Part shown: piece after piece, positions 721 through 61,684 of the stretch | How positions within the stretch are numbered: the first letter of the stretch is position 1 | Layout of the letters: every line of letters begins with the position of its first letter | NCBI RefSeq assembly: GCF_965223525.1 | Contig: NZ_CBDCWX010000005.1 | Coordinates: 323,414 to 387,413, forward strand | DNA length: 64,000 nt | Reading direction: 5' to 3' | Source: Candidatus Leptofilum sp. | Lineage (GTDB): Bacteria > Chloroflexota > Anaerolineae > Promineifilales > Promineifilaceae | Notes under the pieces: generated by a model | Told to the model about the DNA's origin: nothing | The model's database searches: none | Seen by the model: the letters and a program-made list of their open reading frames with translations, nothing else | Program-made: the position numbers and the translations under genes

Positions 721-745
721 TCATTGTTAGGAAACAAACATTCAA

Positions 746-3356: not shown

Positions 3357-3373
3357 CTAAGCTGAAGCATAAA

Positions 3374-3410: not shown

Positions 3411-3456
3411 AACAGAAATATCCAGCAGCTTTTCGATAATAATCTAGGAGGAGAGT

Positions 3457-4320: not shown

Positions 4321-4322
4321 AA

Positions 4323-5327: not shown

Positions 5328-5449
5328 GCACGGCCGTATCTTTGCAACGCATCTGGGTAGGTGAGGAGGTGATGCCTACAAGCAGACCCAAAGACAAATA
5401 GGTTCATGAAAGATTCGATAACTATAAACGTTTCAAGGAGAAAACAATA

Positions 5450-8993: not shown

Positions 8994-9004
8994 GGGTCGG
9001 TTTA

Positions 9005-9505
9005 ATGGCAGCAGAAGAAAACAAGAAAATTGTTGATGCCATGTATGAGAGTATGAACTTGAACCAAGTTGGCGCGATGAAAAAACATTGGACGCGCAAT
9101 ATGGTTTGGGATGGTCCGGCCGGAATTGGCAAGAAGCATGGTGTAGAACAGTTTGAGGAGGAAGTGAGACGGCCGTTTATTCACGCTTTCCCCGATAAAG
9201 TGGGCGAAGATATCGTGCGCCTCTTTGAGGGAGATTGGGTTGCTGGCACAGGATTTCAGGACGCAACTTTTGCCCATGACTGGTTAGGGATTCCAGGCAC
9301 AGGGAAGCGTGTGCGCGTCCGCTATATGGATTTCTGGCGCATCGAAGAAGAAGACGGCGAACGCAAATTGGCAGAAAATTTCGTTCTGATCGACATCCTC
9401 GGCGTGCTGGAGCAGGCTGGATACGATGTGAAAAAAGTGTTGCAGTTTGTAGGGTCAAAACCCCCTGAATTTTTTGAAAATATAAGCACTCAGTCCCAGA
9501 GGTGA
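9005..9505 (+). CDS. single-domain SnoaL-like / NTF2-superfamily protein (tandem paralog)
   Basis: MAAEENKKIV start parallels MAAEKNKQLV of the upstream gene. Same motif set. The stop TGA lies inside palindrome 9501-9513. Confidence 0.75.
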   Translation: MAAEENKKIVDAMYESMNLNQVGAMKKHWTRNMVWDGPAGIGKKHGVEQFEEEVRRPFIHAFPDKVGEDIVRLFEGDWVAGTGFQDATFAHDWLGIPGTGKRVRVRYMDFWRIEEEDGERKLAENFVLIDILGVLEQAGYDVKKVLQFVGSKPPEFFENISTQSQR

Positions 9506-10645: not shown

Positions 10646-11809
10646 ATGAAGACCTTTAAATTTCAAGCCAGAACCAAACTTATTGCTGGCTCAGATTCCG
10701 TGCAGCAGCTTGGCACAGAAGTCAATGCTTTAGGCGTCAACCACGTTATGGTCGTAACGGATAAGGGAATTGTGGCTGCCGGGCTGTTGGATAGGGTGAT
10801 ACGGCCGTTGCACAAGAGTAACATCACGACAACCATCTTTGATCAAGTCGAACCAAACCCAACGGATGAGACTGCCCTGATTGGCGGCCGCCGGGCCAAA
10901 GAGGAAGGCGCACAAGCCATTGTGGCCGTAGGTGGCGGCAGTCCAATTGATGCCGCCAAAGCCATTGCCGTCATGGCAGCCAATGATGGCCCATTTGTGG
11001 ATTATTGTGGCGCTGGGGGTGATCCATGGCCCAACACACCATTGCCTATCATTGCCATACCCACAACGGCCGGAACAGGTGCCGAGGTCAGTGCCGCCGG
11101 CATGATCAACCTGCCAAAACAAGGGCGAAAAGTAGACATCTTTGGCGCCTCTATTTTGCCCAAGGTCGCCATTGCCGATGCCAACCTGACGATCACGCTG
11201 CCACCCCATTTAACCGCGTGGACGGGGGTTGATGCGTTAAGCCACGCAGTCGAAGCTTACCTCTGCCTTGGTGCAAATCCTGTATCCGATGCCATAGCAG
11301 AAGGGGCAATAAGCTTGGTTGCCCAAAATATTCGTCGCGCTTATGAAGATGGCAGCGACCTGGAAGCACGACACAATATGTTGGTTGCCAGTGCCATGGC
11401 GGTCATCGCTGCCTCAGGCGCAGCGGGACTCGGCGTGATCCACTCATTGGCCCAAACCCTGGGTGGGTTTTACGACTTGCCCCACGGTCTGACTATTGCC
11501 GTCTGTTTTGCTGATGGACTGGCTTATAATCTACCTGCTTTGCCGGAAAAGTATGCCACAATCGCTCGTTTGCTAGGGGTAGATACCAGCAAAATGACAA
11601 TGGAAGAGGCCGCAAAATCTGTGATTCCAGCAATCCGTCAGCTCAATGCAGACTTAAATATTACCGATACGTATGCCAGCATGAAGGTTCAGCGGGATGA
11701 TATACCCCAATTAGCGGAGTATGCCTTGCTGGATGGGTGTACACCAACCAATCCCCGTCCCTTGACACACGAAGCATTTGTCGAGTTGTTTGAAGGCGGT
11801 TTTTATTAA
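10646..11809 (+). CDS. iron-containing (group III) alcohol dehydrogenase
   Basis: MKTFKF start with AAGGGGA RBS. GGGSPIDAAKAIA dinucleotide motif, metal-binding His cluster region (DALSHAVEAY, HSLAQTLGG...PHG). Confidence 0.85.
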   Translation: MKTFKFQARTKLIAGSDSVQQLGTEVNALGVNHVMVVTDKGIVAAGLLDRVIRPLHKSNITTTIFDQVEPNPTDETALIGGRRAKEEGAQAIVAVGGGSPIDAAKAIAVMAANDGPFVDYCGAGGDPWPNTPLPIIAIPTTAGTGAEVSAAGMINLPKQGRKVDIFGASILPKVAIADANLTITLPPHLTAWTGVDALSHAVEAYLCLGANPVSDAIAEGAISLVAQNIRRAYEDGSDLEARHNMLVASAMAVIAASGAAGLGVIHSLAQTLGGFYDLPHGLTIAVCFADGLAYNLPALPEKYATIARLLGVDTSKMTMEEAAKSVIPAIRQLNADLNITDTYASMKVQRDDIPQLAEYALLDGCTPTNPRPLTHEAFVELFEGGFY

Positions 11810-11822
11810 TTTGGTGAGACAT

Positions 11823-12836
11823 ATGAGCAAATATCAAACCACAAAAAAAATTGTAAGTAATTATTTTGAAGCGATGGAAAATGCTTCCTCTGAAACCGTT
11901 GGCGATGTGTTAGCTTCCTTCACCAGCGAAAACTACTATTGGCGGGGCGTATACCCCTTCCGGGAACTGCACGGAGCCGAAGCAGTCGCTAAAACCTTTT
12001 GGACACCCCTCATGCAATCGTTATCCCGAATGCAGCGTCGCCAGGATATTTTCATTGGCGGCACCAATGAAATTAGCGGCGAGCAGTGGGTGATGAGCAT
12101 GGGCAACTTTATGGGGCTGTTTGATGCCGACTGGCTGGGCATTCCCCGCACTCGCAAAATCGCCAACCTGCGCTATGCCGAGTTTAACTGTGTAGAAAAC
12201 GGCAAAATCAGCCAAACGGGCATTTTTATTGACATAATCAGCCTGATGGTTCAGGCAGGCGTTTATCCGCTTCCGCCCTCAACTGGCGTTTATTACAACT
12301 ATCCTGGCCCACGCACCCACGATGGCCTGCTTTTTGAGGATGCGCCAGAGGGAGCGGGCGTTGTTACCTTGGCACTCGTCAACGAAATGATTCAAGATTT
12401 GAGGGATCTAAACGAAAGCGGATCAATGGGCTGCCCGCCAGAAATTTTGGAACGCACCTGGCACGACGATATGATCTGGTATGGGCCAGCCGGGATTGGC
12501 GCGACCTACACCATCCCCCGCTACCAAGAGCAGCATCAGCTCCCCTTCCGCCGCAATTTGGCCGACAAGAAGTTTCACGGCCACGTCTGCCGCTTTGCCG
12601 AGGGTAATTATGCTTGTTTTTTTGGCTGGCCGAATTTGTCTAACCGCCCGCTGGGTGGCTTTATGGGCTTGCCCCAAAGCGATGTGCAGGCCGAGATGCA
12701 GGTGGTGGATGTTTATCGGCGCGAGGGAGACAAGCTGGCTGAAAACTGGGTGTTTATTGACATTCTTTACTGGCTCAGACAGCAAGGGCTAGACGTACTT
12801 GGCCGTTCACAAAGAATAACGAACACATCGCTGTAA
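11823..12836 (+). CDS. two-domain SnoaL-like / NTF2-superfamily protein
   Basis: MSKYQTTKK start. N-terminal module ...ANLRYAEFNCVENGKISQTGIFIDIISLM. C-terminal module W.GPAGIG ... VVDVYRREGDKLAENWVFIDILYWLRQQG. Confidence 0.7.
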   Translation: MSKYQTTKKIVSNYFEAMENASSETVGDVLASFTSENYYWRGVYPFRELHGAEAVAKTFWTPLMQSLSRMQRRQDIFIGGTNEISGEQWVMSMGNFMGLFDADWLGIPRTRKIANLRYAEFNCVENGKISQTGIFIDIISLMVQAGVYPLPPSTGVYYNYPGPRTHDGLLFEDAPEGAGVVTLALVNEMIQDLRDLNESGSMGCPPEILERTWHDDMIWYGPAGIGATYTIPRYQEQHQLPFRRNLADKKFHGHVCRFAEGNYACFFGWPNLSNRPLGGFMGLPQSDVQAEMQVVDVYRREGDKLAENWVFIDILYWLRQQGLDVLGRSQRITNTSL

Positions 12837-15137: not shown

Positions 15138-16562
15138 ATGAAAAACACACGCTTATTCAGTTTACTCTTATTACTAATTGCCGCCGTCTTCTTTGTGGCT
15201 TGCGGCTCATCCGGTGACGAAGGCAGTGAAGACACAGCCGAAGACACCACATCGAATGCTGAAGTAGCAGAAGACACCGATGAAGAGATGGACGAAGAAA
15301 TGGCAGAAGATGCGGATGAAGACATGGCAGAAGATATGGGTGTTGAAGGATGCCATATCGCTGCCCCAGCCGAAGACACCGAAATCAACATGATTGGTTG
15401 GTCCTTCCCCATCACCGACTTCTACGCTGAAGAGTTAGAAAAGTGCAACGGTGTGGAGAACCTCACCGTCAACACTAACCTGCTGGCTGGAGCCGATGCC
15501 CAAGAGCAAGTTCGCTTGGCACTGTCCGGCGGTGGTGATTCGCCATTCGATATTGTGCATGGTGCCAATGGTCAGGTAGCTGAATGGGGCGGCCCTGGCT
15601 GGCTGATGCCACTCAACGATTTGGTTGATAAATATTGGGATGAATACAACCTCGGTGATATTCCTGAAACTGTTTGGGAAGGGGCAACAATAGATGGCAA
15701 TATTGTTGGCATTCCAATGGTAGGGAATACGCTGCACTTTATCTACCGTCAAGATACCTTTGATGAGTTAGGTCTAGACGTGCCAGAAACGTATGACGAT
15801 GTTATCGCCATCTGCAACACCGTCGGTCTGGATAATCCCGATTGGGATATGCCGTTTGCCATCGATTTATCGCGCTCCAGGGGTTGGGAGCTTGAGTTCT
15901 TTATGCTGCTCCGAGCCTACGGTGGTGATTACCTGGATGATGATAACATGCCAATCTTCAATGGTGAAGAGGGTGTTTTGGCAATTGAAAAAATTGTTGA
16001 GGTAGCGAATGCTTGTTTAGGTGAAGACGGCCTCTCTTTCAGCCTAAATGACCAGGAAGTTGCTATGCAGCTAGGTACGTTACCGTCTACAAAAATGTGG
16101 GCTAGCCGAGCAGCCAACATGAGCGATCCAGAAAGAACTGATCTGATGGATGTGATCGCCTACGCACCTGCCCCTCGGGTAGTTGAAGGTGGCCCACGCG
16201 CAGGGTCAGCCTGGAACGATTACTTCATGATTCCGGCCACCACAACAAACGATCCCGACCTGATCTTCCGTATCATCATGGAAGCAGCCGATGAGGCTTC
16301 TCAGCAAGAGGCGGCTACATTGGGCATGGTTACACGCACGTCTGCAGCTGAATTTGGTGGCCCTTATCTGCCAGCCGCAAATCAAACCATTGCGGAAGGT
16401 GTTGGTAACTACCAAATAAACCCAGCTGTAAACATCGCTATTACTAAACTTGAGGAGTTTTTACCATTAGTGGGCAATGGCGATATGACTGCCCAAGAAG
16501 CGCTGGATGCAGCGGCTGAAGCATACATTGAAGAAGCCACAGCTCAAGGTTTCATAGAATAG
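15138..16562 (+). CDS. ABC transporter solute-binding lipoprotein, paralog of 1953-3356, no adjacent permeases
   Basis: Same signal peptide/lipobox (FFVAC-GSS) and an acidic tether with one extra DADEDMAE-type unit. About 80 percent identity by eye. AGGAGAAG RBS. Confidence 0.85.
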   Translation: MKNTRLFSLLLLLIAAVFFVACGSSGDEGSEDTAEDTTSNAEVAEDTDEEMDEEMAEDADEDMAEDMGVEGCHIAAPAEDTEINMIGWSFPITDFYAEELEKCNGVENLTVNTNLLAGADAQEQVRLALSGGGDSPFDIVHGANGQVAEWGGPGWLMPLNDLVDKYWDEYNLGDIPETVWEGATIDGNIVGIPMVGNTLHFIYRQDTFDELGLDVPETYDDVIAICNTVGLDNPDWDMPFAIDLSRSRGWELEFFMLLRAYGGDYLDDDNMPIFNGEEGVLAIEKIVEVANACLGEDGLSFSLNDQEVAMQLGTLPSTKMWASRAANMSDPERTDLMDVIAYAPAPRVVEGGPRAGSAWNDYFMIPATTTNDPDLIFRIIMEAADEASQQEAATLGMVTRTSAAEFGGPYLPAANQTIAEGVGNYQINPAVNIAITKLEEFLPLVGNGDMTAQEALDAAAEAYIEEATAQGFIE

Positions 16563-22688: not shown

Positions 22689-22751
22689 GGTAAACGGTAA
22701 TCCGTAAGCAGTAACCGATGACCGTTTACCGATTACGGATTACCGTTTACC
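22689..22751. repeat. heptamer-periodic hairpin element (GGTAAAC/GGTAATC type)
   Basis: Perfect 19-bp inverted repeat GGTAAACGGTAATCCGTAA (22689-22707) / TTACGGATTACCGTTTACC (22733-22751). The whole tract reads in 7-nt register. It ends 3 nt before ATG 22755. Confidence 0.85.
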
Positions 22752-22754
22752 AAA

Positions 22755-23435
22755 ATGCACTGGATTGCAATTATTCTAACAACGGCCGTTCTCACCCTCA
22801 TCCTCTACTGGTTACTCATCACCACAGAGGGGGTCTATTTGGGACGGCGGATTGTGGTGTGGCTGTACGACATCACCGCGCATAAATATGATGGCATCAA
22901 GGAGTTTGATGCAGAAGCAGAGCATTTTTTTTTGATACGGCCGTTGCTCGTCCGCCTGCGCCGTGTGCCAAACCCGCTGGTGCTGGACGTGGCTACTGGC
23001 ACCGGGCGGCTGCCCCACTTCTTGCTAGAGGCGCCCACGTTTAACGGCCGTATCATTGGACTAGATGCGTCTGAGAAGATGCTGAAGCTGGCGAATGAGA
23101 AATTACGGCCGTATGGCCACCGTGCCAGTTTGGTGCAGCAGGTGGCTGACCAACTGCCCTTCCCCAACAATCAGTTTGACCTCATAACCTGCCTGGAAGC
23201 CCTTGAATTTTTCCCGTCGGATACGGCCGCTTTGCAAGAAATGATTCGCGTACTCAAACCGGGCGGCACGCTGCTCGTTACCCGTCGCAAGGGGCGGGAG
23301 GGCAAAGCATTCATCGGCCGTTACCGAACCGTGCAGCAGTTTGAAGCCCATCTGCGCCAGCTTGGGCTGGAAGATGTTCACACCAATCCCTGGCAGACAG
23401 ATTACGATCAGGTTTTTAGTCGCAAACCAGCCTAA
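22755..23435 (+). CDS. class I SAM-dependent methyltransferase with N-terminal TM helix
   Basis: VLDVATGTGRL motif I, LKPGGTLLV motif. The start codon is uncertain because no SD is visible. Confidence 0.7.
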   Translation: MHWIAIILTTAVLTLILYWLLITTEGVYLGRRIVVWLYDITAHKYDGIKEFDAEAEHFFLIRPLLVRLRRVPNPLVLDVATGTGRLPHFLLEAPTFNGRIIGLDASEKMLKLANEKLRPYGHRASLVQQVADQLPFPNNQFDLITCLEALEFFPSDTAALQEMIRVLKPGGTLLVTRRKGREGKAFIGRYRTVQQFEAHLRQLGLEDVHTNPWQTDYDQVFSRKPA

Positions 23436-36604: not shown

Positions 36605-37117
36605 TTACTTATTGGCTTCCCAACGCTCATAAAGCTGCGAGCCGAACGCCTCGTATTGCTCCTGACTGTCAAAAAATTTCTTTGGAATGGAATAAAAGCC
36701 TGTGCCTATCCAAATCATAAGATATTTTTTGTAATGCTTTATTGATCTTATTCCCTTCCATTTTGTCAAGGTCTCATTGGCCTCAGTTGCTTCAAACAAA
36801 CCATCCTCTTTAAGAACAAATTTATGTTCTCCTAAAACACCTGGCAAGTAACCAACTGAGAATACCGAGACCACAAGGCCAAATAAGCAAAGAGCTAACA
36901 TGATAAGCGTTGTCCCAATAGAAGCAACAATGAAGCCTGTAAGTATCGTACAAAAAGTACAGACCACATCTCCAGATTGTTCACGACTAAAATATGCTGG
37001 GAAAAACAGGGTTGCCCAAATTATAAAACCCATTACCCATACAGCTTTTGACCGTGGGATGAGGTAAAGTTGCAAATAAAGATGTTCGAGGCGCGAGTGA
37101 TGTGTTGTGATTTCCAA
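36605..37117 (-). CDS. hypothetical membrane protein with YcxB-like C-terminal region
   Basis: 170 aa, two or three TM helices, then ...WKGIRSIKHYKKYLMIWIGTGFYSIPKKFF... Markedly lower GC than the flanks. Confidence 0.45.
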   Translation of the reverse strand: MEITTHHSRLEHLYLQLYLIPRSKAVWVMGFIIWATLFFPAYFSREQSGDVVCTFCTILTGFIVASIGTTLIMLALCLFGLVVSVFSVGYLPGVLGEHKFVLKEDGLFEATEANETLTKWKGIRSIKHYKKYLMIWIGTGFYSIPKKFFDSQEQYEAFGSQLYERWEANK

Positions 37118-37262: not shown

Positions 37263-38879
37263 ATGAGCGCGACGATGATTTTGTATAACGGCCGTATCCA
37301 CACCCTAAACCCCCAACAGCCCACGGCAACGGCCGTTGCCATCCGTGATGGAAAAGTGCTGGCAATTGGTTCTGATAATGAAATAAAGTCCCTGCTGGCT
37401 GCTGACGGAGAGTTGGTGAATTTGAACGGCCGTTGCCTCACCCCCGGCTTGGTAGATGCCCATGTCCACTTCCAACATTTCGCTCTCAGCCTCCAGCGCG
37501 TTGACCTACGCGGCAGCCAAACCCTCGACGAAGCCCTCCAGCGCATCCGCCAAAAACTTTCTACCGTTCCCCGTTCACCGAATACCGATTACTGGTTACT
37601 GGGAAGAGGCTGGCGCGTTAACGATTGGGGACAAACCATCTTCCCTACTGCCGCCCACCTGGATGCCATCAGCAGCGATGTGCCAATTTGCCTGCACGAC
37701 CATAGCGGCCACGCCGCCTGGGTAAACAGCTGCGCCCTGCAACTGGCCAACATCACTGCCCAAACGGCCGATCCACCCGGCGGCCAAATTCAGCGCGATG
37801 AAAATAGCCAACCAACAGGCATCCTGTTCGAAGACGCAATGGATTTGGTTACCCAACACATCCCTGCTACCACCACTGCCCAGATTGCCGACGCCATGCG
37901 CGAAGCACAACAATATTGCTGGCGCGTCGGGCTTACCGGCCTGCATGATTTTGACGGCCGTGCCTGCTTCATCGCCCTGCAAAGCCTGCAGCAAAATGGG
38001 GAATTAGGCCTGCGCGTGGTGAAAAATGTGCCGGTCTACCGGCTGGAACACGCCATTGGCGTGGGGCTACGCAGCGGTTTCGGTAACGACTGGCTACGCA
38101 TCGGCAGCGTGAAAATATTTGCCGATGGCGCGCTCGGCCCCCGCACTGCCGCCATGATTGCTCCCTACGAAGGGGAACCAGACAATTACGGCATCGTCGT
38201 CACAGACAAGGAAGAGATGCTGGAGAAGGCGAGTACCGCCAGTGCCAACGGCCTCAGCGTCACTGTCCACGCCATTGGCGACAAGGCAAATCATGACGTG
38301 CTGGATGTGTTTGAAGCTGTTCGCCAAGAAGAAACAATACGCAATACGCAATACAAATTACGTCACCGCATTGAGCATGTCCAACTTATCCACCCCGCCG
38401 ACCAGCCCCGACTAGCACAGCTCAACGTCATCGCCTCTATGCAGCCCATTCACGCAACTTCGGACATGGAAACGGCCGTTCACCATTGGGGCAGCCGCAC
38501 AAAAGATAGCTACGCCTGGCGCATCATGCTCAACAGCGGAGCCACACTTGTTTTTGGCTCCGATGCGCCGATTGAGAAGATTGATCCGATGTTAGGGATT
38601 CATGCGGCCGTTACCCGACAACGCCCCGACGGCAGCCCTGGGCCAGACGGCTGGCACCCTGAACAAAAGCTCACCATGGCCGAAACTATCCACGCCTTCA
38701 CCACCGCCGCCGCCATTACCAGCGGGCAGGAAGCCACGCAAGGTAGCATTATCTGCGGTAAACTTGCCGATTTCACTATTTTCAGCCGGGACATCTTCAC
38801 CATCCCGCCGGATGAGTTGCTGGATGTGGAAATTAGCGGCACGGTTGTGGGGGGCACCTTCAAGTACCGCACGTTTTGA
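37263..38879 (+). CDS. YtcJ-like metal-dependent amidohydrolase (Amidohydro_3 type)
   Basis: NGRIHT...AVAIRDGKVLAIG...PGLVDAHVHF N-terminus and HAIGD / IEHVQL / GSDAP metal-site motifs. Confidence 0.8.
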   Translation: MSATMILYNGRIHTLNPQQPTATAVAIRDGKVLAIGSDNEIKSLLAADGELVNLNGRCLTPGLVDAHVHFQHFALSLQRVDLRGSQTLDEALQRIRQKLSTVPRSPNTDYWLLGRGWRVNDWGQTIFPTAAHLDAISSDVPICLHDHSGHAAWVNSCALQLANITAQTADPPGGQIQRDENSQPTGILFEDAMDLVTQHIPATTTAQIADAMREAQQYCWRVGLTGLHDFDGRACFIALQSLQQNGELGLRVVKNVPVYRLEHAIGVGLRSGFGNDWLRIGSVKIFADGALGPRTAAMIAPYEGEPDNYGIVVTDKEEMLEKASTASANGLSVTVHAIGDKANHDVLDVFEAVRQEETIRNTQYKLRHRIEHVQLIHPADQPRLAQLNVIASMQPIHATSDMETAVHHWGSRTKDSYAWRIMLNSGATLVFGSDAPIEKIDPMLGIHAAVTRQRPDGSPGPDGWHPEQKLTMAETIHAFTTAAAITSGQEATQGSIICGKLADFTIFSRDIFTIPPDELLDVEISGTVVGGTFKYRTF

Positions 38880-42805: not shown

Positions 42806-43354
42806 ATGGAGAAAGTTCAGATACGGAGAGCCGTGCCGGATGATGCGGACAGGATGGCGCACTGTTTGGTGGCTGGGAATCGAGCGTCATTCGATGGGTT
42901 GGTTCCAGAGAAGTGCCTGGATTTTCCGGTGGAAGAGAGCAGCCGCAACTGGCGGCAAACCCTGGTTGAAAATGAAACCAGCCACATCTGGCTGCTGCTG
43001 GTGGCAGAATATGAAGCGGGGTTGGTTGTGGGCTACGCCATGTTTGGCACGGGCAGCCGCCAGTCTGAGTTTGGCAGTGAACTGCTCTCTATGGCCGTAG
43101 ACCCCAATTGGCAGCAGCGCGGCATTGGGCGGCTGTTGGTGCAACGGGGGGCTGCGTTTTACCAAAAGCAGGGAATCCATTCGATGCTGGTGGGGGTCTT
43201 GGAGATCAATCCAAACGTGGCTTTTTATGAGCGGCTGGGGGCAAAGTATGTTGAGGAACGGCCGTACAATTGGGACGGCTTCGAGACGACCGAACTACTT
43301 TATGGCTGGGCCAATTTAGAGATGCTTGCAAATCTGCGAGGAAGAGGAAGGTGA
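42806..43354 (+). CDS. GNAT-family N-acetyltransferase
   Basis: GGAGG RBS. MEKVQIRRAVPDDA start. Acetyl-CoA motif A QQRGIGRLLV. Confidence 0.8.
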   Translation: MEKVQIRRAVPDDADRMAHCLVAGNRASFDGLVPEKCLDFPVEESSRNWRQTLVENETSHIWLLLVAEYEAGLVVGYAMFGTGSRQSEFGSELLSMAVDPNWQQRGIGRLLVQRGAAFYQKQGIHSMLVGVLEINPNVAFYERLGAKYVEERPYNWDGFETTELLYGWANLEMLANLRGRGR

Positions 43355-46036
43355 GAACGGCCGTTCTTCTTGCTGCACCTCGTCAAGCCGCCTCTGCAAC
43401 GCCGCAGCGACTTCCCGCACATATGGCTCTTGCAGAACCCCAAGATGATCTGTGGAGAACTGACAGAGGTACACTCCCTCAGCCGCTGCTTTGTCCCAGC
43501 CTAACGATTGATTTGTGAGGCGGCTACGTTCAACCACAAACATATCAATTTTGCCCTGAAACGTGCCACTTGGCCGATAGCGTAAGCGAGATTGGCGGGT
43601 AACAAACTTCATTAAATAATAATCTCGATGCTGCCGCAAAACGGGTGCGCCACTGGCAAGATAGAAGCTAAAAACAGACTTCTTAGCAATTTGATAAAGC
43701 CGAGCAAGCCGCTGGCGTGATTGCAAGGCAATATGCCGCACCTTGCCCACAATCAATTTTGGTAAGTTTTTGTCCAAGCCAAACGTTGGCAAACTGTCCA
43801 CCTGTAGGCCAACGCCATTCTGATGCTGGATCATCAACGATTCTCTACTGTCTAGTGGCGATGGTTCGATGAGAGCCAGTAGAGCCACTTGCTGCCCAGC
43901 TTTTTGCAGCTGCCAAGCCATTTCATAGGCAACCATGCCGCCATAACAGAAACCGCCTAAATAGTAGGGACCTTCTGGCTGGAACTGCCGAATCTCCGCC
44001 ACATACCGCTCAGCAAGCGCTTCAACTCTGGGTGACTCCACGCGATGCCCTGTCCAGTTAGGCGGCTGCACGCCATAAAAGGGCTGGTCATCGGCCAAAT
44101 AGTCGGCCAATTTTTGATGATTGAAGACATGCCCAGCACCGCCATGTACACAATAAAATGGGGGGCGGCCGCCGCCTTCTTTAATTGGAACAAGGGCCGA
44201 CCATGAATCAGACGGCCGTTGCCGTTCGATAGCTTCAGCCAACTGGGCAATCGTTGGATATTGGAACAGCAAGGTAATAGGCAAGCCTTGCATGATTCGT
44301 TTATCAATTTGGGCAAACACGAGCGTAGCCAGCAATGAGTGACCGCCTAGCGTGAAGAAATTGTCGTATATCCCAATGGGCTTTACGCCGAGAACCTCCT
44401 CCCAAATGGCTACTAAGGTCGCTTCATGCTCTGTGGTTGGGGCAGCAAACGCCTCATTTTTCTCTGTTTGGGCAAGTGGCAGTTTACTCAGAGCCAGCCG
44501 GTCTATTTTACCGTTTGCGTTTTGGGGCAATTTGTCTAAAAAGATAAATTGGGCGGGAACCATATATTCAGGCAGCGCTGTTCGCATAAAGTGAACGAGG
44601 GCTTCGGTCGTTGGCTTTTGGCCTGCATAGGGAACGACGTAGGCAATGAGTTGTTTATCGCCAACTGCTGGGGTATGGGTAATAACGGCCGTTTCCTTCA
44701 CCAATTTATACTGAGCCAAAGTCGCTTCAACTTCCGCTATTTCAATGCGAAAGCCTCGAATTTTTACCCGTGAATCTTTGCGACCTAAATAAACTAAACT
44801 ACCATCTGGTTGCAAACGGCCTAAATCTCCTGTGTGATAAAGTCTCATCGTAGGCTCGTTAGCGACTTGCGGGAATGCCTGCTTGGTTAAAGCAGGCCGC
44901 TGCCAATAAGCCACAGCAAGATACGGGCTTTTGACCACAATTTCGCCTACTTCGGATGGAGGGACGGTGCGGTCGTTTTCATCAACCAAAATAATCTCTT
45001 TATCTTGAACAGGGTAGCCTACAGGGACAACATTGGTTTCTAGCTCAATCTGTTTATTCACAAAAAATTGACGGTAAATAGAAACCTCTGTTGAGCTTAA
45101 ATTGTTGAGTAAAATGCAGTTATCAGAAAATCGCTTTCTGTATCGCTCAACATCCGCAGTAGAAACTGCCTCGCCCCCTAAATGGATTAGGCGAATCTTC
45201 GGAAAATTTTCATCCCCCTCCAAATTGTCCACAAAATGCCGAAAAACTGTCGGGATGGAGTGAAAAATCGTTATGCCTTCCTCAATCAACCAACGTTCTA
45301 ATCGTGTTAATCCCAACAGTTTTAAGTTAAAAGGAAAAATCGCTGCCCCTTTCAACATCGCCCGGAAAATATCACTGATACCCGCCGCATGGCTTAGCGA
45401 GCCAAATAAAGACAGCCGATCATCCATACAAATTTTGGTCGCATTGGTGTAGGTCATCACGTAATGAAGAATGTTTCGCTGATTTTGCAAAACTCCTTTG
45501 GGCTTGCCTGTAGAACCTGACGTGTAAATGAGATAGGCGGGCGCGTCTGGTGAGATGGGAAGGCTCAAATCTTTGGCTGATTTACCTTGCACCTCATCTT
45601 CTACATTAATAATCTGGATTTTGTCTGTCTGATAGGTTTGGGCTGTAGGGAAGTTTTTGTGATTGGTTAAAATCAACTCAGCCAGAGAGTCTTGCAATAA
45701 ATATGATGCTCTGGCCTGGGGATACGATGGGTCTATGGGAACAAATGCTTTGCCTGCCTTTAGCACGCCAAATAGCGCGGTTACAAAAGCAATGGTGGGC
45801 TCAAACAGTAAAGCGACAACTTTTCCCTCCCTTCCAGCTTTTTCCAAAATGGTATGGGCGATCTGGTTGGCTCGGTCATTTAATTGCTGGTAGGTCAACG
45901 CGGCCGTTTCAGTTTTAATAGCTAAGCGGCCTGGGGTTTGCTGAACTTGGGATTCAAAACAAGCAGCAATGGATTGCTCTATGCTCTTTTTTTCAAATGG
46001 TCTAAATGTAGCAGGTGGGGGAACGGTCACCTTCAT
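43316..46036 (-). CDS. stand-alone NRPS-like protein: adenylation - thiolation - thioesterase (A-T-TE), no condensation domain
   Basis: A-domain cores LIYTSGSTGKPKGV, YHTGDLGR, GRKDSRVKIRGFRIE, NANGKIDR. Carrier-protein site FFTLGGHSLLA. TE domain PFYCVHGGAG ... GGFCYGG ... DHLGVL. Confidence 0.85.
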   Translation of the reverse strand: MKVTVPPPATFRPFEKKSIEQSIAACFESQVQQTPGRLAIKTETAALTYQQLNDRANQIAHTILEKAGREGKVVALLFEPTIAFVTALFGVLKAGKAFVPIDPSYPQARASYLLQDSLAELILTNHKNFPTAQTYQTDKIQIINVEDEVQGKSAKDLSLPISPDAPAYLIYTSGSTGKPKGVLQNQRNILHYVMTYTNATKICMDDRLSLFGSLSHAAGISDIFRAMLKGAAIFPFNLKLLGLTRLERWLIEEGITIFHSIPTVFRHFVDNLEGDENFPKIRLIHLGGEAVSTADVERYRKRFSDNCILLNNLSSTEVSIYRQFFVNKQIELETNVVPVGYPVQDKEIILVDENDRTVPPSEVGEIVVKSPYLAVAYWQRPALTKQAFPQVANEPTMRLYHTGDLGRLQPDGSLVYLGRKDSRVKIRGFRIEIAEVEATLAQYKLVKETAVITHTPAVGDKQLIAYVVPYAGQKPTTEALVHFMRTALPEYMVPAQFIFLDKLPQNANGKIDRLALSKLPLAQTEKNEAFAAPTTEHEATLVAIWEEVLGVKPIGIYDNFFTLGGHSLLATLVFAQIDKRIMQGLPITLLFQYPTIAQLAEAIERQRPSDSWSALVPIKEGGGRPPFYCVHGGAGHVFNHQKLADYLADDQPFYGVQPPNWTGHRVESPRVEALAERYVAEIRQFQPEGPYYLGGFCYGGMVAYEMAWQLQKAGQQVALLALIEPSPLDSRESLMIQHQNGVGLQVDSLPTFGLDKNLPKLIVGKVRHIALQSRQRLARLYQIAKKSVFSFYLASGAPVLRQHRDYYLMKFVTRQSRLRYRPSGTFQGKIDMFVVERSRLTNQSLGWDKAAAEGVYLCQFSTDHLGVLQEPYVREVAAALQRRLDEVQQEERPFSPSSSSQICKHL

Positions 46037-46212
46037 AAGCTAGCCCCTTTTGATATGAGTGATTATCAAAAATTTGGCTACTTCAAAGGTGATAATCAGC
46101 TTAACCCTAAGTAGAGAATCTTTCGGGGCGGATTAAGTTTAATCACGGTTTTACGCAATGGGGGAAATTGCTCACAAGCGTTTAATCAGCGGCTGGGACA
46201 ATTTAGAATGGC

Positions 46213-46587
46213 TTACAAATCTGCGAGGAAGGTAAGAACGGCCGTTCTCACCTCCTCCACAGTTAATCCACTCGTATCCAAATAAAAATCACAGTGCTTG
46301 CGGGCATGGCGCAGCAGATGATGTTGCTGCACTAGCCGCTGGGGGCCACCATCAATGTGGGGGCGGCGGGCGCGTGCATTGGCGTAATCCACGTCGAGGA
46401 AGATGAGCAGATCGGGCTGGGTGACGCGCTGCCACATATTGGCGACGTAAGAATGCTCCTGAGCAGGGTGTCGCGCTTCGTAACCAGCCGCCTTGAGTGC
46501 AGTAGTGAGGGTACTCTTGCCTGAAGAACATGGGCCAACCACGGCAACGCGCAGGGTTTTACTGTCAACCAAATCAGAATCTGGCAT
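46213..46587 (-). CDS. small P-loop NTPase/kinase-like protein
   Basis: MPDSDLV start. Walker A GPCSSGKST, Walker-B-like LLIFLDVD. Confidence 0.55.
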   Translation of the reverse strand: MPDSDLVDSKTLRVAVVGPCSSGKSTLTTALKAAGYEARHPAQEHSYVANMWQRVTQPDLLIFLDVDYANARARRPHIDGGPQRLVQQHHLLRHARKHCDFYLDTSGLTVEEVRTAVLTFLADL

Positions 46588-46656: not shown

Positions 46657-47379
46657 TCAAATTGGTAAAGACACATCCATCCGGCGCACGCCATCTTTTT
46701 GCGGCGCGGCGTGTACCGAAACGACTAATACGCTAATGTCGTCACGCGGACGGCCGTTGTCCTTCTCGTTTGCCTCAGCTAGTAACATATCGGCCAGGGT
46801 TCGTGCTTCGGTAATGCCCGTGCCAATCATTTGCCGGGTGGCCGCGACGGGGTCATAGTTGCCATTACCGCTCAGGCTACCCGCGTGGCGCAGGCCATCG
46901 GTGAACACCACAATGATCGTACCTGGCAAAATGGGCAGCTCGGTAATGACTGGCTTGGTATTACGATAGATACCTACACAGCGGGAGGGCTCATCGAGCA
47001 AATAAAGGCCATCTTGCTGCGTAAAGACAACAACTGGAGATTCATTGTTGCGGGAGATGACGAAGGTTTTGGTCTCCATATCCACCGAGAGCATATTGAG
47101 CGTTGCGCTAACTTTGCCCCCGCGGTAGGTGTAAAGGTAGTCATGTGCGGCACGAGCGGCCGCGCCGTCCCGCACGCCTTCACTAAGTAGTTGGATTGCC
47201 TTGCGTGCCACCAAATTGCTAATTGCCTTGGCCGATTTGCCACTACGCTGCCCATCTACCAGCACAAACGAGAGTCCGCCATGCGGCCGTTCAATCATTT
47301 CTAGCGTATCACCACTTTCGCTGGTGGCGTATTTGCCAATTTTGGCAACAGCAAATTGCACATCCATAACAGAATTCAT
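46657..47379 (-). CDS. SpoIIE/PP2C-like serine phosphatase domain protein
   Basis: ~240 aa. SGDT...VLVDG..SG and VVFTDGL motifs and overall PPM-type length. Start is 47379 or 47367. Confidence 0.6.
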   Translation of the reverse strand: MNSVMDVQFAVAKIGKYATSESGDTLEMIERPHGGLSFVLVDGQRSGKSAKAISNLVARKAIQLLSEGVRDGAAARAAHDYLYTYRGGKVSATLNMLSVDMETKTFVISRNNESPVVVFTQQDGLYLLDEPSRCVGIYRNTKPVITELPILPGTIIVVFTDGLRHAGSLSGNGNYDPVAATRQMIGTGITEARTLADMLLAEANEKDNGRPRDDISVLVVSVHAAPQKDGVRRMDVSLPI

Positions 47380-50036: not shown

Positions 50037-53000
50037 ATGCCTAGATTGACAATCTCATTGCTAGGGGGAGTGAAAATTGCGTTAGACGGTACGGCCGTAT
50101 CCAACTTCGCTTCTCGCAAGGCCGATGCACTTTTTATTTACCTCGCCTGTAACCCACGTCCGCACCCCCGCGAAACATTAGCAACCCTCTTCTGGCCCAA
50201 CAACGACCAAACTCGCGCCCTGGCCAATCTCAGCGTCATTCTCTCTAGCCTGCGGAAGCAGGTAGACGATTTTTTGCTCACCGACCGGCACATGGTTTCT
50301 TTCAACACCGAAGCAACATTTTGGCTAGATGTGGTGTCATTTGAGCAGGCGATTGCAGCTACCCAGAAGCAGCAGGCAGACAAAATCAGCCGAACCATTG
50401 CCGCGCAGTTGCAAACGGCCGTCTCCCATTACAAAGGCGACTTCCTGGCAGGGTTCAACGTGCGTGGCGTGCCAGAGTTTGAGGCGTGGGTGCTGCTGGA
50501 GCAAGAACGCCTGCGCCAAATGATGCTCGATGCCCTGGCTAATTTAGTCAGCTTTCACCAACAACGCAGCCAATTTTCTGAAGGCATCCAGGTTGCCCAA
50601 CAACTCCTCGCGCTTGATCCCCTACAAGAAGAGATTCATCGCCAGCTTATGCGGCTCTACGCCCTCGACAACCAACGCCCCGCCGCCCTGGCGCAATATG
50701 ACCAATGCACCGCCATTTTGGCTGAGGAGCTAGGCGTCGAACCGGATGAGGAAACGAAGCAGCTCTTTGAAGAGATCCGAGATGACAAGGTGACGAACCA
50801 AGAAAATGTCACCCAAGCTGCCGCAGGCAGCACACCCACGCACAATCTCCCCACCCCAACCACTAAATTTATTGGTCGCGAAAACGAATTGGCGCACATT
50901 GAGAACTGGTTGGCGGAGCCAAACGACCGTCTGCTCACCATCATTGGGCCAGGCGGCATGGGTAAAACGCGGCTGGCGCAGGAAGCGGCCCGTGGGCAAG
51001 TGAATCAATTTGCTGATGGCGTGTGGATGGTATCGTTGGTGCCACAGACAAATTTTAGTGAGATGATAACGGCCGTTTCCGAAACCATTGGTCTTACCCT
51101 ATCCGGCCAAGAAGCCATTGCCACCCAGCTCCACAACCATCTCAAACCCGTCGAAATGCTGCTCATTCTCGACAATTTGGAACATTTGCTAAGCACAGAG
51201 CTGCACAATTTCCTCATCCAGCTCACGCACGATGCGCCCGAACTACGTATCATCACCACCAGTCGTGAACGGCTAAACCTGCAAGCCGAGCGGCTGCTTA
51301 CTTTAGGTGGGCTACCATTTCCAACAATCGGTGAACGGTTATCGGATAACGGATTACGGCTCACCGATTACCCAGGAATTCAACTCTTTTCAAACCGAGT
51401 CCAACGGATTCGTGCCGGGTTTGAGCTGGAGAAGGAGGAAACGGCCGTAATCCAACTGTGTCAACTCGTTGGTGGGCTACCGCTGGCGCTGGAATTAGCT
51501 GCAACATGGATTCGCGTTTTATCGGTAAACGAAATTGTGGCTGAAATTAAGCGGGAACTGAGTGCGCTGGCGACCACGCTGCGCGATGTGCCAGAACGCC
51601 ACCGCAGCCTGCACGCCGTCATTGAATCTTCCTGGCAAATGTTGTCTACAGATGAGCAAACATTGTTCCGCAAACTGGCCGTTTTCCGAGGTGGGTTAAC
51701 GCGAACCGCCGCCCAACAAATCGCAAAGGCAACATTGCCGCAATTAATGAACTTAGTCGATCGCTCCTTTCTGCGGCTCGATGACGATCAGCGGTTTCGC
51801 CGTCACCCGCTCATGCTGCAATTTGCCCAAGAAAAGCTCGCCAGCCAACCAGGTGAGCAGCTGCAAACAGAAGCAATGCATGCCAGCTATTTTGCGAAGT
51901 TTGTCCATTCCCGTGAATCAACTTTAGCGGGTGAAGACACGCAGCAAGCGCTAGATGAGATCAACACAGAGCTAGAAAATATTCGCGCAGCCTGGCAGTG
52001 GTCCTTGCAGCAGATGAATGCACCATTACTCAATCAAGTCATCGAAAGCATTAGCCGCTTTTTTACAGATCGCAGTCGGTATTTAGAAGGGGCAGATTTA
52101 TTTGAGAGTGCATTGCTGGCAATTGAGGAATGGGAGGAAACGGCCGTTTCTGAACAACTCATCGCCAAAATGCAGGTTGAACTCGGTTTTTACCTCTACC
52201 AAACTGGCCAATACGCCAAAGCGGAAAAAGTGCTGCTTGAGGCCAACACATCAACACAAAAACTTGGTCTGAACACAGCCCGTCTCAATTGCTTAAAACA
52301 TTTAGGCGATGTAATTGCCGATCAAGGGGAGCGGGATCGCGCCCGAACAATTTTGGAAGAAGCGTTGCAACTGTGTCGCAAAACTGAAGCTGACGATGAA
52401 ATTGTGGAAATGACCATCTTAAACACCTTGGGCAACCTGGAAGTTTCGGCAGGAAATTATGACACGGCCCAACATCATTTTGATCAGGCAATGGACATTG
52501 CCAAAGCATTAAACCATACGCTGCGCATTGCCATTTTGCACAACAACATTGCCATCATTGCCAACCGGCAAGACAATTTCGAAGAGGCGTTGCACCAATA
52601 CCAATTGGCGCGTAACAAATTCGTCGAAAACAATCACGCCTGGGGTATCGCAGCCACAACCCACAACATTGGCATGATCTACGCAGACCTAGAAAGATAT
52701 GAAGAAGCACTAGCAACAATTCAGGAAGCATACGCCGCCCATGAAAAAATCGGGCATCGGCGCGGCATGGTCGGGGGGCTTTCTTTCATGGGGACAATTC
52801 AGTTCAAATTAGGAAAACGACGCGAGGCGGGACGTAACTATTACGAATCGCTGAAAATGGCGCAAGAGGTGGGTGTTGCTTGGTCAGCCGTTGCCACCCT
52901 GGTTGATGTTGCCGAATTAGAGATGAGTTACGGCCGTTTTGAGAAAGCGGCGGAGCTGGTTGCGTTTGCTATTCAGCAAGAGACGGCCGAGGCAGTCACA

Positions 53001-57750: not shown

Positions 57751-57835
57751 CAGTAAACAGTTATCAGTAGGTCAGTGGTCAGTATTCAGGACGGGTCGCT
57801 GATTACTGAATACTGTTTACCGATTACCGTTCACC
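57751..57835. repeat. heptamer-periodic hairpin element (CAGTAAA/CAGTTAT/CAGTATT type)
   Basis: CAGTAAACAG...CAGTATTCAG / CTGAATACTGTTTAC arms. The right end supplies the last codons (VNGNR*) of the GT2 gene ending at 57817. Confidence 0.75.
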
Positions 57836-60040: not shown

Positions 60041-60131
60041 CTCGGCTGCGGTCGGCGTCTCGCCGTACCGCTTACTATTTCATGCTGAATCTATGTAAAT
60101 TGGGGCTAAATGGTGTGGGAAACGGCCGTTT
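60041..60131 (+). repeat. 91-bp direct repeat, left copy
   Basis: 87 of 91 positions are identical to 61594-61684, with no indels. Contains a GC hairpin (GCGGTCGGCG..CGCCGTACCGC) and ends in GGGAAACGGCCGTTT. Confidence 0.9.
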
Positions 60132-60249
60132 TCCATCCAAACTGCCCCGTTCCCCCACATTCCAGCTAGGCAAAGAAAGTGGCAAGGCGGGTTGTCTGCT
60201 ACAGCACACTAAGAAGACTCGCCCCGAGCAAGGGGTGAAGGGCTAGAGT

Positions 60250-61566
60250 TTACTCTGGACTTGAAATTACAACTTCATTCCAAACACCCGATGCTATGTC
60301 ATCGGTGTAGCGATAAAAATACTCTATGTTACGTTCGCTAAGTTTTACACTAGAGGCCACAATGTACCCTAACCCTGCGCCTTCATACAGCCATACAGGA
60401 GCCCTCGTCATAGAGACTGATAAAAGAGAGTCCTCATGCAAAAGAGAGATTGTTTGCGACTTCAAATCGAGTAAATAAATGCCGCTCCTATCTGATATTT
60501 CTGCATTGAATGCGACCATTTCAGAATCAGGTGACCAAGAATAGTATCCCGTGTAAGTATATGGAAAAGAAATTATCTCTGTATCCCACCCACCAGTCTC
60601 GCTCATTTGACTGACGCCAATTTGTCTTGTTAGCTCGAAGCCTGTTGAGTCGTACTCATTTACCTGATAAACAATCTTTTGCCCATCGGGCGAAAACACT
60701 GGATTGTAAGCACACATTGTCGGTGGAGAGACAGGCGTTTCCATGCCTATGTCGAAATCGTAAACCATTACTTGACGATACCATGCTTCATCAGTAACAA
60801 CATAGACGATTTGGTTTCCTGTTGGTGACCAACTTGCAGACCAGTATGAAAGAGATGGATTGGAAAGACGCTCATAAAAATGGTCAACTTCTTTCGTTTC
60901 TGGGTCAAATAAGAAGAGCTTTTGGCCAGTGAAGGTATCGTCCTCAATAGAATATCTAGACCCTTGCATCAATACTAATCTTTGCGTATTTGACCAACTG
61001 AAGTTTGTATTTGTTTGAGGAAAAAACTCTGTGTCACCAATTGTCTGGTTCAATGGAACAAACATGCTGCTCCACCCCGTGCCAGCAGAGTGTAAAGCTA
61101 ATCCAATGTAACGACGATCCCCATCCACATATTTTCTTATAATAAGTTCTGCTCTGTGGATTAGGTTGCTATCTAATTCGATAGCCTCTGTGCGTAGTAG
61201 CTCACCCGTTTCAAGCGATAAAAAGCTCAGTTTCAAAGATCTTGTTTTTGTATGCACATATGTAATTTCATTATTTTTTTCTGCAATGATAAAAGATGAC
61301 CTGCCACCAAGTCTTGTTCGTACGTTTTCAATATCACATGGGGGTGGGGGGATAGTCTCAAATTCCTCCTCAATTTCGCTGTCAGGCGTATCTTCGATAG
61401 GTCTTGTATTTGAATCGCTCGCTGCTGCACTTGCTAATGGCTGATTTGTTGAAGTTGCTTGTACAGAAACGTTTTCAGCAACTCCGTTTTCTACACGACA
61501 AGCGACAAACAATAGCGCATATGCAAATAAAATAATATTAAACTGCGTAGAAGTTAATTTGTTCAT
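60250..61566 (-). CDS. lipoprotein with PD40/TolB-like beta-propeller repeats
   Basis: MNKLTS... signal peptide with lipobox LFVAC. Repeated WSPTGNQIVY / FSPDGQKIVY / WSPDSEMVAF blades. GC is clearly lower than the neighbours. Confidence 0.65.
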   Translation of the reverse strand: MNKLTSTQFNIILFAYALLFVACRVENGVAENVSVQATSTNQPLASAAASDSNTRPIEDTPDSEIEEEFETIPPPPCDIENVRTRLGGRSSFIIAEKNNEITYVHTKTRSLKLSFLSLETGELLRTEAIELDSNLIHRAELIIRKYVDGDRRYIGLALHSAGTGWSSMFVPLNQTIGDTEFFPQTNTNFSWSNTQRLVLMQGSRYSIEDDTFTGQKLFLFDPETKEVDHFYERLSNPSLSYWSASWSPTGNQIVYVVTDEAWYRQVMVYDFDIGMETPVSPPTMCAYNPVFSPDGQKIVYQVNEYDSTGFELTRQIGVSQMSETGGWDTEIISFPYTYTGYYSWSPDSEMVAFNAEISDRSGIYLLDLKSQTISLLHEDSLLSVSMTRAPVWLYEGAGLGYIVASSVKLSERNIEYFYRYTDDIASGVWNEVVISSPE

Positions 61567-61593
61567 ATTACAAATTTCCAATTAGTAGATTGG

Positions 61594-61684
61594 CTCGGCT
61601 GCGGTCGGCGTCCCGCCGCACCGCTTACTATTTCATGCTGAATCTATGTAAATTGGGGCTAAATGTTGGGGGAAACGGCCGTTT
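61594..61684 (+). repeat. 91-bp direct repeat, right copy
   Basis: See 60041-60131. Confidence 0.9.

Follow-up and report, generated by a model that had tools for sequence, protein, structure and literature searches.

Cyanobacteria have been known for 30 years to carry highly iterated palindromes, for which, to our knowledge, there is no agreed function. Genes that vary between genomes within an otherwise conserved neighbourhood are familiar from the minimal mobile elements of Neisseria, in which variable cassettes between conserved genes are exchanged by transformation and no defining repeats or junction palindrome occur, and DNA taken up by transformation can also enter by homology-facilitated illegitimate recombination or a Campbell-type crossover, the classical outcome of which is an insertion with a deletion, not a duplication. 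Reported links connect the cyanobacterial palindrome HIP1 (highly iterated palindrome 1, GCGATCGC) with site-specific recombination, with illegitimate recombination and with precise insertions (Elhai 2015, PMC4390886), and a 2026 preprint proposed a role for it in DNA uptake. Here we describe a stand-alone gene resembling a nonribosomal peptide synthetase (NRPS), with adenylation, thiolation and thioesterase domains (A-T-TE), which lies in a 64,000-nt stretch of Candidatus Leptofilum sp. (contig NZ_CBDCWX010000005.1 of assembly GCF_965223525.1; hereafter the window, to which all positions refer unless another locus is named) between two copies of a short direct repeat that ends at the octameric palindrome ACGGCCGT. 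The evidence supports a lineage-specific acquisition that entered the overlapping 3' ends of two convergent genes. The features of the locus are as follows:

42806..43354 (longest open reading frame from 42770), plus strand: GNAT acetyltransferase (Pfam Acetyltransf_1/7/10)
43304..43368: repeat copy 1, 65 nt, with a 6-nt AGGAAG tandem insertion
43316..46036, minus strand: stand-alone NRPS-like A-T-TE gene, 906 aa (Pfam, TIGR01733, relatives in the PDB)
43357..43364: palindrome ACGGCCGT at the right end of copy 1
43369..46190, minus strand: inserted segment, 2822 nt, with the A-T-TE body, its 5' leader and a putative decayed GNAT remnant at the right end
46104..46190, plus strand: putative decayed, in-register GNAT 3' remnant (about codons -48 to -20) with two in-frame stops
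46191..46248: repeat copy 2, 58 nt, holding an orphan GNAT tail (plus strand) and the P-loop C-terminus (minus strand)
46213..46587 (longest open reading frame to 46629), minus strand: small Walker-A (P-loop) protein, about 124 aa
46221..46262: extended imperfect palindrome (inverted repeats) centred on ACGGCCGT at 46238-46245, inside the P-loop C-terminal coding region
46657..47379, minus strand: SpoIIE/PP2C-type phosphatase (Pfam SpoIIE), used as anchor gene

A preliminary description of this DNA had reported direct repeats of about 90% identity with one AGGAAG indel, decoded in different frames as several protein C-termini, and both statements are confirmed. In a multiple alignment 52 of the 58 block positions are identical, the single 6-nt indel being excluded, and the pair consists of two stretches, 43304-43344 against 46191-46231 (88% identity across 41 nt) and 43344-43367 against 46225-46248 (96% across 24 nt), with the AGGAAG indel between them. 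Translation verified all four decodings: copy 1 encodes the C-terminus of the GNAT protein on the plus strand (ending GWANLEMLANLRGRGR and stop) and that of the A-T-TE protein on the minus strand (ending EERPFSPSSSSQICKHL and stop), the last 17 codons of each gene lying within it, while copy 2 encodes the 12 final codons and stop of the P-loop protein on the minus strand (ending VRTAVLTFLADL) and, on the plus strand, an orphan GNAT-like tail (SGWDNLEWLTNLRGR and stop) without a gene body. The extended palindrome of copy 2 contains the perfect 16-mer GAGAACGGCCGTTCTC, and the block of identity spans a 16-24-nt palindrome through the P-loop stop codon, leaving the P-loop reading frame intact. 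That the duplication ends at the palindrome was borne out, with the end lying 3 nt beyond it (3-4 nt past the palindrome of copy 1, stopping at 43368|43369); the 2-3 nucleotides shared beyond the octamer agree with the extended consensus of the palindrome, which means that the joint may in truth be inside the palindrome and that the break point is fixed no more closely than this. We computed a palindrome-anchored score by gapped extension from each pair of ACGGCCGT sites 300-8000 nt apart, taking the inverted orientation as a control, and this pair scored 28 on one side and 5.5 on the other, as expected of a one-sided repeat, while the control never exceeded 20 (10,676 ACGGCCGT site pairs in 1.3 Mb of the clade). 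A self-BLAST of the window returned just three direct-repeat pairs of such size at most 12 kb apart: this one, 60041/61594 and 8399/9494. By both measures, 60-bp similarities of this kind are rare here.

Related loci show the junction without the A-T-TE gene. The comparison set comprised 94 related loci (1.3 Mb in total); 80 loci from metagenome-assembled genomes (MAGs) of Chloroflexota were fetched with the SpoIIE-type phosphatase, the neighbour of the P-loop gene, as anchor, and the closest of these was also from Candidatus Leptofilum sp. (94%), followed by MAGs of Ardenticatenaceae and Promineifilaceae (85-89%). The preliminary description had proposed insertion of the A-T-TE gene into a tail-to-tail GNAT/P-loop junction with duplication of the target, and had suggested looking for relatives in which the two genes converge directly upon a single repeat copy. 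Such empty sites were found in three Promineifilaceae loci (L003, L010 and L092), where GNAT and P-loop genes overlap tail to tail and share a single block and palindrome, and the A-T-TE gene was found by tblastn in none of the 94 loci, so that no relative carries both copies around a native A-T-TE gene. The insertion is therefore supported, but the event was not a simple 60-bp duplication, as shown below. The relatives' GNAT genes align with the left flank of copy 1 and their P-loop genes with the right flank of copy 2; the ancestral overlap measures about 20-30 nt, with ACGGCCGT within the last 12 P-loop codons, and in every close relative the palindrome sits at the P-loop codons E/R-T-A-V regardless of the sequence past the stop codon. 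Orthologues of the GNAT gene (66-80% identity) occupy the same position in L003, L010, L090, L091 and L092, and a metagenome scan with the GNAT query returned merely two matches, at 39% identity. The P-loop protein has Walker-A-level matches only in Pfam and the PDB. In nearly all related loci examined its gene lies directly downstream of the phosphatase gene, the two forming a conserved unit.

The slot between a glycosyltransferase gene and the P-loop gene is an insertion hotspot. It holds an intact GNAT gene in L003, L010 and L092, a GNAT relic of just the last 43 codons in L008, a terminator-like hairpin and no GNAT gene in L002, L004 and L007, and a DNA-alkylation-repair gene in L090 and L091, which also have GNAT, and in L001, which does not. 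The repair gene of L090 and L091 is placed between the stop codons of GNAT and the P-loop gene, at a distance of about 25 nt from the palindrome, with a shortened GNAT tail and no duplication, so insertions here require neither palindrome nor duplication; no flanking repeats were found at the alkylation-repair insertions of L001, L090 and L091, and not every insertion in the clade therefore fits the pattern. Given their overlap, the GNAT and P-loop genes both stay functional only if an event duplicates the shared part or rewrites one of the tails. A single slot between conserved genes, filled by unrelated genes in different genomes (A-T-TE, alkylation repair, nothing), recalls the minimal mobile elements of Neisseria, but here there are repeats and a palindrome at the junctions. 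In L001, the closest relative, a gene for a DUF3360 membrane protein (10720-12420) lies between the phosphatase and P-loop genes, which are adjacent elsewhere, and it has no flanking repeats.

The A-T-TE protein carries the Pfam domains AMP-binding (231 bits), AMP-binding_C, PP-binding and Thioesterase in one polypeptide, scores 336 against TIGR01733 (cut-off 317), and its relatives in the PDB are NRPS modules. In a search of 5.8 billion proteins its best full-length homologues were 40-43% identical and were mostly single-module A-T-TE proteins of Nostocales, and none exceeded about 50% identity; exact-sequence look-ups of the GNAT, P-loop and A-T-TE proteins of the window gave no match. The conserved C-terminus of the A-T-TE protein stops about 4 codons short of the junction. 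As had been described, the enclosed 2.8 kb is AT-richer than its surroundings and holds two copies of ACGGCCGT: the GC profile is mostly 0.42-0.49 in the insert and 0.53-0.57 in the flanks, and the two copies (44212 and 44685) compare with about 4.7 expected, a density below the local norm. The gene itself has a GC content of 0.477 and a third-position GC content (GC3) of 0.47, against a window mean GC3 of 0.555 (sd 0.074), which makes it about 1.2 sd low and not an extreme outlier. By chance about 0.04 copies of ACGGCCGT would be predicted in it (an estimate), and the presence of two suggests that it has either resided for some time in a palindrome-making genome or originated from one. We therefore take the A-T-TE gene to have been acquired within this lineage from an unsampled source. 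It has the same orientation as the SpoIIE/P-loop operon, and a consensus-based scan, which covered sigma-70-type promoters and intrinsic terminators, showed no terminator between that operon and the A-T-TE gene and no separate promoter for the gene there, so it is likely to be expressed by read-through from the operon.

The sequence to the left of copy 2 bears on how the repeat arose. Upstream of the orphan tail its frame runs on with no gap, and blastx gives an ungapped in-frame match of 42 aa to GNAT C-termini. In the register of the repeat, 46104-46190 matches the window GNAT gene at 32/87 positions (p=0.011) and that of L003 at 39/87 (p=9e-5), and the score summed over six orthologues lies z=3.2 above the null for the whole window (p=0.0016) and peaks sharply at offset 0. 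This suggests, with moderate confidence, that copy 2 is the well-kept tip of a decayed GNAT 3' remnant about 145 nt long. Identity to copy 1 does not change gradually along it: at 46190|46191 it jumps from 32/87 (37%) to 18/22 (82%), and then rises to 34/36 (94%), with a Fisher estimate of about 2e-4 for 32/87 against 18/22. The 22 nt to the right of the step, which are non-coding here and form the GNAT-only part of copy 2, are 21/22 (95%) identical to the distant locus L092, while the 36 nt beyond them encode the P-loop tail. Relatives lacking GNAT have unrelated sequence at the position of the 22 nt, so constraint is an unlikely cause of their conservation. The sharp step is thus a poor fit to even decay after a single duplication in situ, and it fits a junction between old and fresh sequence. 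A derivation of copy 2 from a longer GNAT copy through a 71-nt deletion between two GGCTGGG repeats (46178-46197 resembles 43220-43239 at 17/20 positions) was considered and set aside, as the in-register remnant fits better and the 17/20 match is possibly due to chance.

ACGGCCGT is a highly iterated palindrome. There are 102 copies in the 64 kb against about 1.05 expected from base composition, roughly a 100-fold excess (about 1 per 630 bp, or 1.6 per kb), and the runner-up octamer palindrome has 5 copies in the window. It is present in most window genes, is spread over genes and spacers, and frequently stands in the context GGAAACGGCCGTTTCC; among octamer palindromes it ranks first in most loci of the closest clade (L001-L039), with a density there of about 1-2.8 per kb. 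It thus shares with HIP1 a length of eight bases, an excess of about 100-fold both within genes and between them, and an extended palindromic context, but differs from it in sequence and in phylum (Chloroflexota, Promineifilaceae), and a literature search found no report of ACGGCCGT as a highly iterated palindrome. More distant relatives are dominated by other palindromes, namely GCGGCCGC in L038 (24 copies in 17 kb), TGCCGGCA in L052, CCGGCCGG/GGCCGGCC in L050 and L060, and CCGATCGG in L066 (common too in L071 and L078), and this variation between related MAGs is like the palindrome switching of cyanobacteria. No DNA methyltransferase gene was seen in the domain scans of the window, the sole methyltransferase match (22755-23435) being to generic and UbiE/COQ5-type S-adenosylmethionine-dependent methyltransferase families. 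In L038, direct repeats of 105 nt (2822-2925/4350-4450, 92%) flank a gene (dcd) that, judged by eye, is dCTP-deaminase-like and apparently bears an intein; tested against that locus's own dominant palindrome, GCGGCCGC, they do not end there.

A second cassette in the window ends its repeats at the same palindrome:

60041..60205: long hairpin, 165 nt, centred on ACGGCCGT (60122-60129)
60041..60131: repeat L1, 91 nt, left hairpin arm plus apex
60250..61581, minus strand: cargo, a 443-aa secreted/lipoprotein-like beta-propeller (PD40) protein
61594..61684: repeat L2, 91 nt, 96% identical to L1, ending at ACGGCCGT (61675-61682)

The right arm after L2 is short and different. The PD40 gene has a GC content of 0.41, a GC3 of 0.35 and no copy of ACGGCCGT, and is absent from all 94 loci; pooling both cassettes gives 2 copies of ACGGCCGT against about 7.2 expected (Poisson P about 0.03). 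This cassette had been described as having the same architecture as the A-T-TE locus, which is correct in that its repeats end at the palindrome, but its left repeat is a hairpin arm, and the whole block is missing from relatives without the cargo. In L082 a homologous hairpin (9009-9172; -90.5 kcal/mol, z=-7.7) comes after the same GT2 glycosyltransferase gene, the homology extending even to an unpaired internal loop, and there the slot is occupied by an unrelated lipoprotein-like gene bounded by a 62-nt repeat of 79% identity ending AACGGCCGTT. In both genomes the two repeat copies are each other's closest relatives, and the cargo downstream of GT2 varies between genomes (PD40, u340, HD, acyltransferase plus PIN). 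The entire hairpin block is missing from L081 and L094, and L093 is rearranged; no clean empty site with a single left arm and apex was found in these three loci, and the lack of the whole block in L081 and L094 suggests that the repeats of the second cassette belong to what was inserted. In about 1.25 Mb searched, the only copies of the 165-nt hairpin are those that follow GT2 in the window and in L082-L087; it may be a bidirectional terminator or a mobile, MITE- or REP-like hairpin element; the A-T-TE cassette has no long hairpin. Rfam searches of the window, and of the second cassette at a relaxed threshold, matched no family, and there are no tRNA or tmRNA genes in the window, so the repeats are not a known RNA gene or a tRNA-type att site. 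The consensus scan for promoters and terminators was uninformative around both cassettes, bar a small terminator-like hairpin after the PD40 stop codon.

One-sided repeats anchored on the palindrome were found at about six loci, including the second cassette (60122/61675), L082 (9088/10334), L025 (18521/20119) and an array in L016; L020 (18043/19618) is apparently the same locus as that of L025, and in both the cargo is an acyltransferase and a PIN toxin. At the four loci in which an upstream gene is included, the cargo is co-oriented with that gene, and on the sense strand of the cargo every repeat starts with the palindrome. The three best-characterised loci have repeats of 58 (or about 145 with the remnant), 91 and 62 nt with 79-96% identity, and the repeats of different loci have nothing in common but the ACGGCCGT core. 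The L016 array (1-3250; the locus starts inside it) has four copies of a 55-90-nt repeat, each with two copies of ACGGCCGT, between two-gene modules that include XisH/XisI-like genes (by eye from translations), an antitoxin with PIN, and others, in a layout like that of a cassette array. In L025 (18470-18545/20070-20140) and L020 (18000-18060/19570-19640) one repeat copy reads ACGGCCGT-ACCCCCT-ACGGCCGT after the shared part and the other reads ACAGCCGT-AGGGGGT-ACGGCCGT in L025 and ACGGCCGT-AGGGGT-ACGGCCGT in L020, so that the spacer is inverted between the copies. In L027 a toxin-antitoxin pair (PIN and, by eye, ribbon-helix-helix type) is inserted in the signal-peptide/lipobox region of a lipoprotein gene; it is flanked by a 43-nt repeat (3972-4014 and 4835-4877) with the palindrome in mid-repeat, and the truncated N-terminus of a second lipoprotein lies upstream.

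How the A-T-TE gene came to lie between two copies of the block is best explained, in our opinion, by incoming DNA that carried its own GNAT 3' end and crossed over within the block, a reading that we favour at about even confidence. In the ancestor the GNAT and P-loop genes were convergent and overlapping, a state kept in three relatives. The incoming DNA would already have borne a copy of the GNAT 3' end, with homology to the chromosome stopping at the palindrome, and would have been integrated by a reciprocal crossover inside the block of about 58 nt, either by Campbell-type integration of a circle or by homologous exchange with donor DNA of the same layout. A crossover resolved at the left edge of the block would leave old, decayed GNAT sequence to the left of 46191 and fresh sequence to its right. 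The 2.8 kb of foreign DNA now lies between two copies of the overlap block, with GNAT taking its tail from copy 1 and the P-loop gene from copy 2, and the incoming A-T-TE reading frame takes its last 17 codons and stop from copy 1. The palindrome would then be the spot where foreign DNA first joined the chromosome, whether as microhomology, as a replication or breakage hotspot, or as the core of a recombinase site. Such a crossover would account for the step in identity, the in-register remnant, the sole indel of copy 1 and the absence of transposase, integrase and terminal inverted repeats; it would also explain why the A-T-TE reading frame runs through the palindrome into copy 1 while its conserved part ends about 4 codons earlier, and it fits a mild incongruence in affinity, the GNAT body being closest to L090/L091 and the P-loop and phosphatase genes not.

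Several points weigh against this reading. The crossover was unobserved, and no donor, circular form or strain polymorphism was found. The excess of derived states in copy 1 is small, at 176 against 181 summed matches to four outgroups, plus the indel. The decayed remnant hangs on one register-specific test (p of about 0.002), and the stretch 46104-46190 was missed by an unanchored nhmmer search with a profile of the GNAT region that precedes the block. The founding join 3 nt past the palindrome would be pushed back to an earlier genome and left unexplained there, the alkylation-repair gene entered the slot away from the palindrome and without duplication, so the palindrome is not required, and selection for intact neighbours alone would enrich overlap-duplicating events under any mechanism. 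Among known processes, homology-facilitated and Campbell-type integration resembles the A-T-TE locus in needing no enzyme from the element, in having one homologous in-register junction and the other at a short GC-rich microhomology, and in having hotspots between conserved genes, but here there is a duplication and the homologous anchor would be only about 58 nt.

Bases derived in both copies and differing from all relatives (CTGC, GTTCT) indicate that the copies are sisters within this lineage, which would also suit a duplication in situ, in which the DNA broke or a fork stalled at the palindrome hairpin, foreign DNA was captured there and the target block was copied twice locally, no copy of it arriving with the foreign DNA, by the filling-in of staggered nicks 58-145 nt apart or by template switching of the nascent strand (microhomology-mediated replication restart). 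The lack of a recombinase in the window is as this would predict, as is a repeat end 3 nt past a hairpin-forming palindrome at three loci (both window cassettes and L082), though the 2-3 nt past the palindrome fit its extended consensus and do not fix the exact break point. The differing repeat lengths (58, 62 and 91 nt) suit a variable re-entry point, and the uniform polarity could mirror the direction of replication. However, we consider duplication in situ rather unlikely: its non-coding sequence should have decayed evenly, yet the 37% identity of 46104-46190 adjoins 22 nt at 82% (95% to L092), and that we know of no enzymatic precedent for a stagger of 58-145 nt also counts against it. A transposase-type target duplication was rejected, given that no transposase domain occurs in the 54 window open reading frames of at least 95 aa, that terminal inverted repeats are absent and that repeat length varies (58, 62, 91 nt). 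The ends of the insert (43369.../...46190) showed no terminal inverted repeats, either in the inverted-repeat listing or when read directly. The idea that nothing was inserted here, the two-copy structure being ancestral and lost in relatives, or the similarity a by-product of constraint on overlapping 3' ends, is very improbable. Recombination between 58-nt direct repeats would indeed yield single-copy sites such as those seen, and the block is unusually conserved between lineages (up to 86%), but the A-T-TE gene is in no relative, the slot has at least five different states among them, and the composition and palindrome density of the gene are under the local norm, with no close homologue among 5.8 billion proteins. 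Constraint would leave the GNAT-only part of copy 2 unexplained, as the orphan tail has no gene body, and an ancestral duplication would need a founding event anyway.

The shared polarity and the palindrome-first repeats keep alive a site-specific, integron-like explanation, in which a host recombinase (Xer-like or other, encoded outside the window) would cross over in a dyad-symmetric core around ACGGCCGT and insert promoter-less cassettes behind a host gene and in its orientation; the one-sided repeat would then be an element-borne replacement of the target 3' end, like that of islands at the 3' ends of tRNA and protein genes. The one-sided identity ends at a dyad-symmetric site (AGGTRAGAA-CGGCCG-TTCTCACCT) in an attL/attR geometry, the repeats are non-identical (79-96%), all cassettes have one polarity, and the slot downstream of GT2 holds different cargo between homologous repeats in the window and L082. 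The two-gene modules of L016, split by a repeat with two palindromes, fit as well, recombination of orientation-less sites could yield the inverted 7-nt spacer of L025 and L020, and HIP1 has its own links to site-specific recombination (PMC4390886). Nevertheless we regard this explanation as doubtful. No recombinase was found in the window or in any cassette, and Pfam scans of the 54 window open reading frames of at least 95 aa found no recombinase, transposase or integrase domain, the A-T-TE gene being the sole reading frame of the insert. With a core about every 630 bp, a recombinase that recognised nothing else would scramble the genome, and the core is all that repeats of different loci share; moreover, the insertion in the same slot of L090/L091 disregards the palindrome. 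The likeness to integron cassettes lies in the single promoter-less reading frames co-oriented with an upstream source of expression, the hairpin repeat beside the reading frame (second cassette, L082) and the L016 array of toxin-antitoxin-like modules. Unlike integrons, there is no IntI, no integrase domain having been found in the window, and the crossover would lie at the apex of the hairpin and not at its base, with flanking repeats that share 58-91 nt and not 7. By eye, no attC boxes (RYYYAAC/GTTRRRY, R''/R') are present at the hairpin base, the repeats ending in GAACGGCCGTTCT or AAACGGCCGTTT. Integrative islands at gene 3' ends, with their attL/attR sites and including the integrase-less cis-mobilizable elements (CIMEs), are alike in their direct repeats of tens of nucleotides, one-sided identity from a dyad-symmetric site, regenerated target 3' end, displaced orphan 3' fragment and empty attB-like site in relatives. 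They differ in that here a single gene is inserted without an integrase (neither a tyrosine nor a serine integrase was found in the insert or the 64-kb window), the core recurs at about 1.6 per kb, the repeated block serves two convergent genes, and no att sequence is common to the loci.

Other parts of the window gave further observations on repeats and composition. The pair 8399-8479/9494-9574 was rejected as a cassette boundary: it is an operator-like element upstream of paralogous genes, an 81-nt repeat (83%) with two GGTGACAGTCACC palindromes about 50 nt apart that resembles a duplicated operator or promoter region and precedes SnoaL-like genes (8499-8993, 8990-9505 and 9598-10605). A block of 4.9 kb (1875-6772) with ABC-transporter genes and one open reading frame without a Pfam domain has no ACGGCCGT against about 8 expected and a lower GC content, and may be another acquired block. 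Paralogous solute-binding-protein genes (1953-2970 and 15138-16179; 73-86% DNA identity) belong to a duplicated sugar-uptake-like module, and both adjoin a LacI-type regulator and SnoaL-like genes. No repeats flank the low-GC, palindrome-free gene at 36605-37117, and L090 has a 170-aa open reading frame there (a positional match only). Heptamer-like runs (ACCGATT/ACGGATT/ACCGTTT) occur at 22714-22758, 37563-37593, 51342-51372 and 57791-57835.

The finding extends highly iterated palindromes to another phylum, in that a different octamer dominates these Chloroflexota filaments of activated sludge and ends the repeats that bound several strain-specific insertions, which hints that the palindrome takes part in gene gain. 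We think it improbable, though worth stating, that ACGGCCGT is the joining or crossover point of a host-driven cassette exchange in Promineifilaceae, with a one-sided repeat of 50-90 nt that restores the 3' end or terminator, its cargo being promoter-less accessory genes (the NRPS-like enzyme, lipoproteins, toxin-antitoxin pairs) set downstream of and co-oriented with resident genes. If true, this would amount functionally to an integron-like capture of genes that needs neither IntI nor attC, and a highly iterated palindrome would have a direct part in how genes are gained. A causal link to the palindrome would provide such palindromes with a testable role in gene acquisition and would explain how small accessory genes enter tight, even overlapping, junctions without harming their neighbours. 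If the link is not causal, the locus is still a clean, outgroup-verified case of a foreign biosynthetic gene in an overlapping convergent junction, with the overlap duplicated so that four protein C-termini are encoded by two copies of one 58-nt block.

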